Assembly (NCBI GenBank): GCA_951406725.2
Contig: OX597815.1
Location: forward strand, 117,428,001-117,492,000
Source of the DNA: Octopus vulgaris
Taxonomy: Eukaryota
Direction: 5' to 3'
DNA length: 64,000 nt
Shown here: in pieces, positions 7,429-26,292 of the stretch
How positions within the stretch are numbered: position 1 is the stretch's first letter
Layout: each line of letters opens with the position of its first letter
Program-made: the position numbers and the translations under genes
The notes under the pieces: generated by a model
The model's input: only the letters and a program-made list of their open reading frames with translations
Told to the model about the DNA's origin: nothing
Databases searched by the model: none

Positions 7429-7782
7429 CGTGGGTGTTCTATTAGAACAAACTATACTGCGGTAGTTACCAAAAGAGAAACCACTCATAATAGCTTTTGG
7501 TACAAAATGCACGCTTGCTTATATCACTAGCGAGGAGATATCTCCGCCGTTTGCAGCGCGAGACACCAAATCACGTGATTTCGACTTTTATTGGTCTCGT
7601 CAATGATGGACCCTCGACCGCTAGAGATAGTCACGTGATCTGGTGGTCTCAGCACTGGAAATAGTGAGGAGTTATCTCCCCGCTAGCGATATAAAGAAGA
7701 GTGCATTTTGCTCCAAAAGCCAATATAAAAGTTTCTGCAATGGTAACTACTGCAGTGTAGTCTGTTTAACTGAACATCCGCG
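7429..7782. repeat. ~350-bp imperfect fold-back element
   Basis: Arm pairs: GGTAGTTACCA/TGGTAACTACT, CTTTTGGTACAAAATGCAC/GTGCATTTTGCTCCAAAAG, TTATATCACTAGCGAGGAGATATCTCC/GGAGTTATCTCCCCGCTAGCGATATAA, GAGACACCAAATCACGTGA/TCACGTGATCTGGTGGTCTC. Confidence 0.9.
7564..7608 (-). ncRNA. Type I hammerhead ribozyme motif (U3 core variant, AUU site)
   Basis: Minus strand: CAUCA-UUGACGA-GAC(CAAUAAAA)GUC-GAAA-UCACGUGA-UU-UGGUG; all three stems pair and stem III is palindromic. Confidence 0.7.
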
Positions 7783-7954
7783 ACTGAGTGGGGATAAATA
7801 TTACCTCTCGGTATTAATAATGCTTGTGTTGCTAATATATATCTTTTAACACAGATGTGTATGTATGTATGTATGTATGTATGTATGTATGTATGTATGT
7901 ATGCATGTATGTATGTATGTATGTATGTATGTATGTATGTATGTATGTATGTAT

Positions 7955-9560
7955 GTCCGTCTTTGTATCGTCTATCTGTCTGTATGCTTTTGTTGTCGTC
8001 CGTTACGTTCTTATTCCGATTTTGGATTTACATATGTGTATGTGTGTATGCATGAATGTATGTATACATATATATATATATATATATATATATATATATA
8101 TATATATATATGTGTGTGTGTGTGTGTGTGTGTGTGTGTGTGTGTGTGTGTGTGTATGTATATATATATGTATGTATGTAATTATGTATGTATATATGTG
8201 TGTGTATGTCGCCAACAAATCATAAATCCGAAAGAGAATTACACAATATATATATATATATATATATATATATATATATATATATATATATATATATATA
8301 TATATAGTGTGCTTCTCTATCAATTGGTAGGGATATCAGAAGAAGGAATTTTATTCCGAAATATCATATCAAACTATGGATGATTAAATTACAACAGTTA
8401 TTATAGTCCATTGTTTGTGTTTTAGTTTGTATATTATTGTTTGTGTATATATATATCGGAACACCTCCGTGACATCCGCCTTGCCAACGACACACCGGTC
8501 CGTGACATCCGCCATTTCCGCTCCACCGGTCACTCCTTGCAACACAATGTCTGTGTTCGGTTTGTCCTTGCATAGAGGCCATCCGGATTCCCGTTTGCGC
8601 CGTGAACAAGGATTAATCTTCTCTCTTCGCTCTTTTACGCCATTTGGTCTCAAATCTCCCCCCTCCTCATCTAACCTCCCCCCGACTCCTGCTTCTCTTC
8701 GGTCCTTCATCTTTTCACCCCTACTCTCTTTCCCTCCTATTCCCTTCTTCCCTCCTCTTCTTCCCTCCTCTCCCCTCCTTTCCCACCCCCTCCTCTTCTC
8801 CTCTCCTTCTTTATCCCCCTTCCCCCTCCCTCCTCCCCCTCTTCTCCTCTTTCCCCCTCTCACCCTCCCCCATCTCATCTCATCTCACCCTCACCCCCTC
8901 CTTCTTTCCTTCTCCCCCTTCTCCCCTCCCTCCTCCCTCCTCTTTCCTTCTCCCCTCCCTCCTCCCTCCTCTTTCCTTCTCCCCCCCCCCTCATCTCCCC
9001 CCTTCTCTTTCGGATTTATGATTTGGTGGCGACACACACACACACACACACACACACACACACACGCATGTATACATACATAATTACATACATACATACA
9101 TACATACATACATGCATACATTCATGCATACACACACACACACACACATGTAAATAAAAAAAAAAACGGAATATGATCGTAACGGACGACAATAAAAATA
9201 TACGGACAGGGAGACGAAACAAAGACGGACAGGAAAAAAACCAGGACGGATCATTCGTGGCCTTCTATTCATCAGTGAAGTTTCCAATTTTCATTACAGG
9301 TTCGGCCTGTTACACTTGATCATACACACACACACACACACACACACACACACACACACACACACACACGCGCACACACACAGACACGCACACATAAAGA
9401 ATAAAATATTTTGAATGACACAACAATGCACTATAAACCGATTATAGCAGCGGCTCCATCAATTCCTAGGGACATCTGAAGAAGGAATTTTATTCCGAAA
9501 TATCATATCAGACCATGGATGATTAAATTACAATAGTTATTATAGTCCATTATTTTTATT
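7955..9560. mobile_element. Penelope-like element composite (GIY-YIG C-terminus plus inverted and direct pseudo-LTR pieces)
   Basis: 8455-8655 (+) encodes EHLRDIR..HFRSTGHS..MSVFGLSLH..RLRREQGLIFSLRSFTPFGL, like a PLE endonuclease end. 7955-8020 is inverted at 9165-9232, 8208-8238 is inverted at 9003-9033, and 8305-8420 repeats directly at 9443-9555. Confidence 0.7.
9470..9515 (+). ncRNA. Minimal PLE-type hammerhead motif
   Basis: CUGAAGA-A-GGAAU(UUU)AUUCC-GAAA-UAUCAUA-UC; stem I is weak. The copy at 8337-8370 has CAGAAGA. Confidence 0.55.
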
Positions 9561-10176
9561 ATAAAGTACATTGTTGTGTCATTCAAAATATTTTATTCTT
9601 TACAAACAATACACAATACTTCAAGCGAACTACAATATTCTCCTATATATATATATATATATATATACATATATGTATCTGTATGTTCACACACATATGT
9701 ATATATACATATATGCGAGCATGTATTTATGCATATATTTCGCTTTTGTTTACGATTTGCGAAAAACTTAACGTATTCCAGGCATTTGTATGTATGTATG
9801 TATGTATGTATGTATGTATGTATGTATGTATGTATGTATGTATGTATGTATGTATGTATGTATGTATGTATGTATGTATTATTATTATTATTATTATGTG
9901 TGTATGACTGTATGTATATATGTATTGGAATAACTTTCAAATCTTCACTAATCGATAGAATATAGGAAACGAGAATCAGCCTTTCCTTTTTTTTTTTAGA
10001 AATCTCCAACGCTTCCACTCCTTTACCCAAATCTATCGTTTCATGTCCGCCTTGTAAAATATTATTACCGGTGTGGTACAAGACATTGATGTTCAATAAT
10101 AATACTTTACTACAGTCGTTCTGTTTGTATGCGAAATATAGACAAGACATTCACAGCTTTGTAGACAAGACATTCA

Positions 10177-11281
10177 CAGTAGCGTACATAGGGTAAATCG
10201 CGCCCGGGGCACGAAGTTGTTTTTCCCACGAGAGTTCCGGACCCCAGTAATGAACTCATTTGCGTACAGCCAATCAGAGCTCACCTTGAAAATCCACATA
10301 CTGTTTACGACTACAGTCAGGCATAGAATGGTGTATGCCACTCTGCGAGTACAGCATAGCAGGTCTCACTTAAGCACCACGTTCCTCACCGCCACCATCT
10401 TTATAGATCAATAGAGCACCATCTCTATATGGTGCTAACATTAGGTACCTATGCCCAGACTGAGGTTAGTGATACTGTTTGTACCTTTTGATATATGCAA
10501 GGAACGCACAATTCGACACAACGCCATATTGGTTACGATGTTTCCAGATCAACACCAACATTTTAAATTAGGAATGTACAAAATCAGTCAAAAAATGAGG
10601 AAACTACACTCATTTACATTTTCTAGTAAATTACCCAAATTGACAACACTTATGGCATCATCGGTGAGCAGCTCGCCATTCTCTTTATACACTAAATTTC
10701 ATATTAGTAACCACTATTAACCCGTTTAGGGCAGTTGGATTTTGCTATAAGGCACATTTTCCACTGAACTCAACCAGAGTATTTTCATGACTAGGTGGAT
10801 ACTAGTTTGATAGTTGAGCTCTGATTGGCTGCATGCAAATGAGTTCATAACTGGGGTCCGGAACACTCGTGGATAAAAAAATTTCGCGCCCAATGCAAGC
10901 CGCAAAAATGCTCTCCTCACCACTAATTACAAAATCCACATTACATAGTACTTATTTGTTATAAATAATTAATGTTTTAATGCAATATTTTAGGAATAAA
11001 TACTTTTACAGCCTGTAATTCAAAATATATATTTTTTAATGTTTACTTTTACAAAGCCTTTTTTGATGCCCTTCGTAAAAATGTCCAGACACGGCAGTAG
11101 ACAGCCATCATATTGCGTTTACCTTCAATAACAGCATAAAACGATATGCAGGAGATCCATCATTACAATTGCAATTTTATAAATGGAGTTTAAGCTTATC
11201 GTATTATGGTAAATTCTGCGCTCCACTTCAATCGGCACCCATGGTACGTGCCTCCCTTGCCCTCTCCTAGTTACGCTATTG
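10177..11281. mobile_element. Non-autonomous DNA transposon with internal ~100-bp inverted repeats
   Basis: Termini CAGTAGCGTACATAGG / CCTAGTTACGCTATTG, TTCA on both flanks; internal inverted repeat 10207-10285 vs 10815-10890. Confidence 0.6.
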
Positions 11282-25115: not shown

Positions 25116-25213
25116 GAAATTTGTGTTTAAATGTGTTGGTTGGTGTAACTTTGTGTTTGTTTTCATGAATTAGTACTTCTCATGACAGTTTTCTAAAATC
25201 TTAAATTTTACAG

Positions 25214-25322
25214 GCTTCATCTTCACATCGTGGTATTTCCTACGTTACGGCAAGTATATTTATTATTGGAGAAATTGCCGGAACTGGTCTGCTTACTCTA
25301 CCTAAGGCTTTGGAAGATACGG
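25214..25322 (+). CDS. Amino-acid transporter coding exon 2
   Basis: TTTTACAG|GCT..; ASSSHRGISYVTASIFIIGEIAGTGLLTLPKALEDT (TM1 motif); G|GTAAG, phase 1. Confidence 0.93.
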
Positions 25323-25807
25323 GTAAGAAAACTACAAACGGAATTACATTAGCACAGACACATAAGCGCATCGGCATAATGCAGCAGAAACAAGGTGGGA
25401 TGATAAAGTCAATTGCATCGAACCTCAGAGCTTCAGTAATTTAATTCATCGTTGATAGAGTACCACTCCCTGGATCTATGTGATTAGTACCCAGTGGCAG
25501 GCCGAAGCGAAATGATTAATAATCACAAGAAAGTGCCCTTCTCCTTGAAGGATGCTGTGACCGTAGCTGGGGTTCCTCACCACCGGTGGTTTTACAGTGC
25601 GTTCTGACACCAACCAAGGTTATATCTGCTCTGATGGATTATCATCACATTTACTAGTTAACGAATAATCGAGACCTTGTCAGGTCAGAGTAGACTTAAC
25701 TAGAACCCCACTACCGCATGCAGTTTAAAGTCAAACCCAGGACACACACACATGCATACATACATACATACATACATACATACATACATACATACATACA
25801 TATATAT

Positions 25808-26292
25808 ACCGAGATGGTGTCAGCCCTTCTGGTGACGTTGATGATCGCCTGGGGCTAGATGCATCAATAACACACCCACCACCCCGCCCTGTCCCTAGCC
25901 ACATTCAGATGGCTGATCCCCCTTATGTTATAGAGCAGTTACTGTTTATATCTCGCTCAGAGATTTTTTATTGTTGTCGAACGGTTTTTCTACATCAGTG
26001 ACTGTGGTTACTGTGAAAATCCATATATATCCAGCCTGTAGAGGAAGTCCCTCAACGAAGAGCGGTGCTTACCATACGTTGATAAGAGGCAAATACCTCG
26101 AAACCGGTCCGTATGTAGTATCCGTATCTTCGGGGAGGCTGATCTCCCTTTGCAGGCTGGCAAGGACACCGAGATGGTGTCAGCCTTTCTGGTGACGTTG
26201 ATGATCGCCTGGGGCTAAATGCATCAGTAACACACCCACCACCCCGCCCTGTCCCTAGCCACATTCAGATGGCTGATACCCCTTATGTTATA
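25808..26292 (+). mobile_element. Retrozyme-like / non-autonomous PLE-type unit (360-bp period, ~125-bp direct repeats)
   Basis: 25808-25932 repeats at 26168-26292 with a few substitutions; non-coding; flanked by (TACA)n/(TA)n; contains a hammerhead. Confidence 0.75.
26073..26115 (+). ncRNA. Type I hammerhead ribozyme with compensatory U3-A8 core (GUC site)
   Basis: CAUACG-UUGAUAA-GAGG(CAAAUA)CCUC-GAAA-CCGG-UC-CGUAUG; stem I extends over 26031-26160; predicted cut after 26109. Confidence 0.85.

Follow-up and report, generated by a model that had tools for sequence, protein, structure and literature searches.

Hammerhead motifs in the window

The stretch analysed here, hereafter the window, is 64 kb of Octopus vulgaris DNA (contig OX597815.1, positions 117,428,001–117,492,000) containing four non-coding elements, each with one type I hammerhead ribozyme motif (Table 1). 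As argued below from sequence comparisons, these elements are likely to be members of one retrozyme superfamily, which would probably be transcribed from an internal U1/U2-type promoter, self-cleaved and circularised, and reverse-transcribed by proteins that Penelope-like elements (PLEs) encode.

A relaxed descriptor of the type I hammerhead, which allowed U3-A8, U3·G8 and C4 cores and whose relaxations were picked with knowledge of the variants in the original prediction, found exactly four hammerheads in the window. The mean in 100 local dinucleotide shuffles of the same 64 kb (500-nt blocks) was 0.07, far from the equal rate that had been named as grounds for abandoning that prediction. The strict C3-U4-G8 descriptor matched once (element 3), compared with 0.01 in shuffles. 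Hammerheads 1, 2 and 4 lie exactly where they had been predicted, and hammerhead 3 was found inside the predicted interval 21093–21164, the remainder of which is outer stem I. The Rfam model RF00163 gave a mixed picture: it recovered element 2 at 23.7 bits (E 0.0015), short of the gathering score of 34, gave a faint match to element 1 (E 1.4) and missed elements 3 and 4. By the RF00163 consensus, a CAA loop II is canonical for type I hammerheads. A scan of the whole window against Rfam (150 of 242 matches considered) and a repeat finder were dominated by microsatellites and uninformative. As each window copy holds one hammerhead, none of them alone could release a unit-length RNA.

Table 1 Features of the window, with unit positions numbered from the hammerhead cut site
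Feature	Position	Strand	Description
Element 1, main arm	7420..7630	−	Family F1, unit positions 293→152, 5′-truncated, short 3′ end
Hammerhead 1	7564..7608	−	U3·G8 here, mostly U3-A8 in F1 as a whole; cut predicted between 7569 and 7568; inverted arm predicted to sequester hammerhead
Element 1, inverted arm	7631..7851	+	Second 5′-truncated F1 copy, positions 345→212, long end; head-to-head join forms long hairpin
Element 2	15243..15564	+	Family F2, one truncated copy of 0.9 unit, positions 212→177
U1/U2-like ATCAGTGA box, element 2	15268..15275	+	Putative proximal sequence element (PSE), 120 nt upstream of cut site
F2 intrinsic rod	15300..15435	+	Extended stem I, hammerhead at tip
Hammerhead 2	15346..15393	+	C4 variant, with decayed palindrome of stem III in window copy; predicted cut 15387/15388
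Element 3, main arm	20976..21272	−	Family F3, positions 173→130, short end
F3 intrinsic rod	21062..21193	−	With hammerhead 3
Hammerhead 3	21101..21156	−	Canonical CUGAUGA core, long stem II; predicted cut 21106/21105
Element 3, inverted arm	21274..21390	+	F3 positions 71→187, long end
Element 4	25808..26294	+	Family F4, positions 59→185, 1.35 units, partial direct tandem; (TA)n-rich flanks
U1/U2-like ATCAGTGA box, element 4	25994..26001	+	116 nt upstream of cut; TATA-like word 30 nt further on
F4 intrinsic rod	26031..26160	+	With hammerhead 4
Hammerhead 4	26073..26115	+	U3-A8 core; predicted cut 26109/26110
Penelope-like insertion	21413..23610	+	Separate, very young autonomous family; inverted 3′ stub 21413–21616 (long end) and 5′-truncated copy with reverse transcriptase (RT) and GIY-YIG (short end); comparator
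3′-end remnant of F4/F5 group	47952..48045	−	F5-like by eye
Amino-acid transporter exon-like frames	28876..29208, 32658..33242, 34055..34354	+	Resemblance by eye
Long interspersed nuclear element (LINE) fragments	31050..31856; 49214..50361	+; −	zf-RVT match; RT-like frames by eye
Gag/protease-like fragment	152..1060	+	By eye; no Pfam match for first frame

Families of closed units and two kinds of hairpin

Each element was used as a starting point for searches of the genome (2.8 Gb, 227 contigs), in which dispersed relatives were frequent, with 2036 (F1), 330 (F2), 783 (F3) and 1744 (F4) first-look candidates. In each family search, 40 candidates were scored, and 30, 25, 30 and 30 loci (F1–F4) were fetched, the window copy included each time; the counts below refer to these 115 loci, which are the 25–30 best-scoring of each family. 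The families proved to consist of closed, circularly permuted units of 354 (F1), 356 (F2), 337 (F3) and 360 nt (F4), with a GC content of 0.39–0.48 and no ATG open reading frame (ORF) longer than 70 amino acids. Every family consensus contains one intact hammerhead, on the sense strand only, and a palindromic stem III as had been predicted; consensuses without an intact core, named beforehand as a reason to reject the prediction, were not encountered. When folded as circles, the units are predicted to be 59–66% paired, with z scores against 40 shuffles of −12.0, −6.1, −3.6 and −4.5 for F1–F4 (antisense −8.8, −5.4, −3.3 and −1.0).

Direct runs of more than one unit were present in 12/30 (F1), 16/25 (F2), 19/30 (F3) and 30/30 (F4) loci, the last count being biased by a query that was itself a full unit, and the longest run was 923 nt. 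Most sampled arrays are shorter than 2.7 units; copies of ~1.9 units or more exist (e.g. L032, L050 and L053), and an F4 array of ~3.5 units lies on C8. F4 is young, its copies being 94–98% identical. Two F4 insertions, L054 and L055 (C1:67.41 and 67.47 Mb), have identical boundaries and flanks in opposite orientation, and they probably represent a local segmental duplication and are thus non-independent loci. A fifth family, F5 (L188–L217; 354-nt unit, 311 exact pattern matches), was found through contig loose ends and is a sister of F4; a 119-nt tandem of the F5 3′ end plus (TA)n is present at C1:11168474. Further descriptor hammerheads unlike those of F1–F5, at L090:716, L157:316-376 and L286, suggest that the genome holds more families.

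Although the original prediction had described the families as unrelated, they proved to be homologous outside the hammerhead, with z scores of 16.0 (F1–F2), 17.5 (F4–F5), 11.8 (F2–F5), 6.8 (F2–F4) and 5.0 (F1–F3). Since the units, 48–66% identical between families, are linked in a connected chain of homology, they are diverged relatives of one ancestry. The hammerhead core varies among them. The 3–8 pair is mostly U-A in F1 (T in 25/30, A in 21/30) and U-A in F4 (30/30), and it is C-G in F2, F3 and the F5 copies inspected. The sister pairs F1/F2 and F4/F5 thus differ by a compensated switch of this pair, which points to selection on the hammerhead core in the master lineages. U3-A8 cores are known in Schistosoma PLEs (PMC4209133).

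Two kinds of hairpin had been conflated in the prediction that each ribozyme sits at the tip of a 130–500 nt hairpin. The first kind is an intrinsic rod of ~130 nt, found in every family, in which stem I is extended by ~45–55 bp and the hammerhead lies at the tip; elements 2 and 4 owe their 130-nt hairpin to this rod, and the part of the claim that refers to it stands. Sister families show three or four double compensatory changes in the rod region. The second kind, the fold-back of 300–500 nt, is a join made by the individual insertion; in elements 1 and 3, two 5′-truncated copies are joined head to head. The fold-back is strong in element 1 (z −17.8) and element 3 (z −9.0), weaker in element 4 (z −3.8) and not significant in element 2 as folded (z −0.9). 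Inversions occur in 51 of the 115 loci (F1 7/30, F2 8/25, F3 21/30 and F4 15/30), with junctions that are scattered round the unit and differ between copies. Stems I and III of element 1 are paired with its inverted arm and have probabilities of 0.0, so that the ribozyme would be inactivated by the fold-back; the join is predicted to destroy the hammerhead fold.

These results bear directly on the original prediction itself, namely that unrelated families of fold-back rod RNAs, viroid-like or resembling miniature inverted-repeat transposable elements (MITEs), transpose as hairpins with a ribozyme at the apex. The strong folds of elements 1 and 3 speak for it, as does the intrinsic rod, which does bear the hammerhead at its tip, but 64 of the 115 loci have no inversion, the junctions are scattered, the fold-back of element 1 abolishes stems I and III, and the families are homologous with the hammerhead in one polarity only. 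We regard this explanation as highly improbable. A MITE or fold-back DNA transposon was rejected as a candidate because there are no fixed terminal inverted repeats, the junctions being variable and most loci uninverted, and the comparison with MITE-like rods falls with fold-backs that differ from one insertion to another.

The description as viroid-like fits in part. Avsunviroidae are about 350 nt long, structured and equipped with hammerheads, and the structured hammerhead unit resembles them in all three traits. Unlike them, the octopus units have genomic DNA copies, a hammerhead in the sense strand alone and a partly branched fold. A viroid-like RNA of the Avsunviroidae type was rejected on the grounds that ribozymes are not present in both polarities and that genomic copies are dispersed.

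Insertion footprint and putative promoter

The units show 5′ truncation, partial tandems and an inverted upstream copy, as expected of a Penelope-mobilised element, and every family examined has two fixed 3′ ends. Counted in nucleotides after the cut, these lie at ~169/207 (F1), ~168/230 (F2), ~135/189 (F3) and ~185/226 (F4), i.e. 40–60 nt apart, and the F4 ends run mostly into (TA)n. Both ends were classifiable in 35 of the 51 inversions, of which 33 combined a short with a long end, two had two short ends and none had two long ends (binomial p 2e-8). On our reading, one priming site is used per target strand, and the two cDNAs would meet at their truncated ends. PLE insertions are reported to show partial tandems, inverted 5′-truncated copies and a 30–40 bp tail at one end (PMC8557442), and in vitro work on an anole PLE showed that RT starts at two internal places and that both target strands are extended (PMC11167929).

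The window itself contains a PLE whose family has many 100%-identical copies and encodes RT and GIY-YIG. One short and one long end were found in 10/10 inverted loci of this family (12 loci fetched, five of them selected for a visible inverted pair) and also in the copy within the window, and the two ends are 41 nt apart, as in F4. This match gives genomic-footprint support to Penelope mobilisation of the units. Given that the window PLE has the insertion signature of the units but no sequence in common with them, it serves as a comparator only; the earlier suggestion that the RT present in the window may have mobilised them is backed by the likeness of insertion signatures and opposed by the lack of common sequence. 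Copies of the window PLE contain no hammerhead detectable by the descriptor. At L154:1136-4839, this family has an upstream 472-aa ORF without a significant Pfam match that overlaps a 784-aa RT–GIY-YIG ORF with a Cys-rich linker. What the original prediction said of mobile, non-coding hammerhead families is upheld by the families and the footprint: the unit is structured and was likely moved by Penelope-type machinery.

The same footprint could be left if the elements were dead-end stubs of pseudo-long terminal repeats (pseudo-LTRs) from undiscovered autonomous PLEs, formed anew at every insertion rather than propagated as units. The insertion footprint is identical, and a young PLE family carries in its pseudo-LTR a minimal U3-A8 hammerhead with the CCGG stem III of F4. 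However, runs longer than one unit continue into the same unit and never into an ORF, and tblastn of the 115 loci found no unit adjoining a PLE ORF and nothing beyond PLE fragments that lie separately nearby at six loci, which makes this origin very unlikely in our judgement. An autonomous PLE identity for the units was rejected, as they contain no RT plus GIY-YIG ORF. Three PLE families, two of them by way of their 3′ regions, were compared with the units, and no common sequence was found except a similar hammerhead core in one. This second young PLE family, L278–L297 (e.g. G000:C29:25347341-25347753), has 98–99% identical copies, 2017 candidates and 58% amino acid identity to the first; its stem III likeness to F4 was judged by eye, and its ends are ~40 nt apart. 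It is a candidate partner of the units, as a lead only.

A box resembling that of the U1 and U2 genes was found upstream of the hammerhead. In the octopus genome, ATCAGT (≤1 mismatch) is present at −57 to −61 in 20/20 U1 and 12/15 U2 loci. With a position weight matrix (PWM) built from 11 distinct U1/U2 sites and tested against 300 shuffles, the best site in F2, F4 and F5 lies 116–120 nt before the cut and 28–30 nt ahead of a TATA-like word, and 0–1 of the 300 shuffles reach its score. F1 and F3 have degenerate box words at −121 and −123; across the five families, the position of the box is colinear, between −116 and −123. From the position of the box, transcription is predicted to start 56–60 nt before the cut.

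The box could instead be a conserved RNA hairpin, e.g. a protein-binding site, with transcription by read-through, which would be compatible with the rest of our reading. It lies within a predicted hairpin, a 7-bp one in the F4 fold and predicted stems in the other families, and it is degenerate in F1 and F3, where the PWM is not significant (p 0.45 and 0.93). A tandem cluster of variant U6 genes (L166–L170, G000:C1:139.42 Mb) has an octamer and a TATA box without ATCAGT, which also tells against the promoter; the wider U6 comparison was uninformative, with most matches looking like retrocopies and 11/20 extra loci without an anchor. On the other side, the box matches the U1/U2 element of the same genome with a similar spacing to the TATA-like word and is colinear in every family, and newt satellite 2 has an snRNA-type promoter (as cited in PMC2220036). 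A hairpin without promoter function therefore seems unlikely, though it deserves to be taken seriously, and an internal U1/U2-type promoter is reasonably probable; our confidence in it goes no higher because the box also falls in a predicted hairpin.

A proposed replication cycle and its relation to known systems

Taken together, these features suggest the following cycle for the retrozyme superfamily. A copy of at least ~1.9 units would be transcribed from the ATCAGT box, starting ~56–60 nt before the first hammerhead. Two hammerheads, probably dimerised through the palindromic stem III, would free a unit-length RNA, which may then be ligated into a circle that retains its own upstream promoter. 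As the footprints suggest, a PLE RT/GIY-YIG complex would nick both strands of an AT-rich target and prime cDNA at two internal sites 40–60 nt apart, one per strand. Copying passes the cut site for variable lengths, which the DNA shows as single, partial-tandem or head-to-head insertions; the long hairpins in elements 1 and 3 are of the head-to-head kind and are not inherited as such.

The circle is dispensable if the template is an uncleaved linear multimer of the same families, likewise mobilised by PLEs, with a vestigial or protein-assisted hammerhead. Insertion of the anole PLE in vitro was independent of hammerhead cleavage, and none of the reads ended at the cut (PMC11167929); the ~3.5-unit F4 run and the weak monomer fold agree with such a template. 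It is nevertheless improbable to our mind, as the core, including the compensated 3–8 pair, has been kept across families only 48–66% identical, and as most arrays are shorter than 2.7 units and the upstream promoter would be expected to erode without recircularisation.

Several results weigh against the proposed cycle, beginning with a sample confined to best-scoring loci. Ends of 16/51 inversions fall outside bins that were fixed after the data were seen; the window PLE has no sequence similarity to the units, and for two further PLE families the 3′ regions match them in AT-rich 15–17-mers only. Each sister comparison shows 7–18 broken rod pairs, homology is weak in three of ten family pairs (z 1.0, 2.1 and 2.8), and F5 has a C·A mismatch at the closing base of stem II. 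At position 4, F2 has C in 13/25 and T in 10/25 copies in a CpG-decay pattern, and the family appears to be ancestrally C4. In nearest-neighbour folding, the probability of stem III did not exceed 0.2 in any of the four consensuses, which makes activity of the monomer doubtful and is why dimer-assisted cleavage is invoked here; among Xenopus retrozyme dimers, 1/9 cleaved in vitro (10.64898/2026.07.22.740005).

The F4 unit is covered by contigs from four runs that were guessed to be RNA, three of which cross the unit junction, and these were counted neither for nor against the cycle since genomic tandems yield an identical join. F4 is held in part by 19 of 24 listed runs, none of them recorded as RNA. 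F4 words occur in runs under four organism labels, which suggests that the family is common to related species.

The families, known here from DNA, fit the metazoan non-LTR retrozymes, a kind already described (PMC7229834), by type I hammerhead, unit size, tandems, GC content and fold. As in coral, mussel (350–390 nt) and axolotl/newt satellite 2, the unit is non-coding (150–450 nt in those systems) with one type I hammerhead and a GC content below 50%, forms a structured predicted circle, occurs in tandem copies and lacks LTR-type organisation (PMC7229834). In contrast to the retrozymes of that account, the octopus units are mostly dispersed insertions of 0.6–2.6 units with PLE tails and head-to-head inversions, and they have U3-A8 and C4 cores, a long stem I rod and circles that are predicted. 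The main text of PMC7229834 has zero occurrences of ‘octop’, ‘cephalop’ or ‘inverted’, and no report of a cephalopod retrozyme or PSE was among the matches listed in searches of the open-access literature apart from its supplements, which could contain octopus hammerheads.

With insertions of EN+ (endonuclease-bearing) PLEs, the units have in common 5′ truncation, partial tandems, an inverted 5′-truncated copy, often a 30–40 bp tail at one end, microsatellite or AT-rich targets and two internal RT starts (PMC8557442, PMC11167929). Unlike the PLEs described there, they have no ORF, a closed 350-nt unit, a hammerhead of canonical rather than minimal size and tails of 40–60 nt. PLEs were proposed as a ‘strong candidate’ for the mobilisation of animal retrozymes (PMC7229834), and phylogenetic support has been reported (10.64898/2026.07.22.740005). 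PLE dependence has been proposed or shown for Xenopus retrozymes (10.64898/2026.07.22.740005) and Chlamydomonas MRC1 (PMC8557442), which also occur as monomers and partial tandems. Those elements have sequence in common with a PLE pseudo-LTR, whereas the octopus units are linked to PLEs by insertion footprint, with no such sequence found in three PLE families. Newt satellite 2 (Coats et al. 1994, as cited in PMC2220036) is likewise a hammerhead repeat with an internal snRNA-type promoter, which in octopus is predicted from the U1/U2 box match.

A bolder picture, which we put forward tentatively and hold somewhat less probable than its contrary, is that of ‘SINEs of Penelope’ (SINE, short interspersed nuclear element): a circular superfamily with thousands of copies in five or more families, in which a 350-nt circle would combine a U1/U2 promoter with a dimer-type hammerhead and with two sites for Penelope priming. 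Rolling-circle reverse transcription would regenerate the upstream promoter, and the strict pairing of short with long ends would record that a Penelope dimer primes on two strands in vivo.

The octopus insertions add a PLE footprint in quantitative form, in agreement with that of a still-active autonomous PLE of the same genome, and the young F4 family supplies exact predicted cut, start and priming sites. The head-to-head insertion scars would explain why such loci resemble MITEs or viroid-like rods and are at risk of being misannotated.

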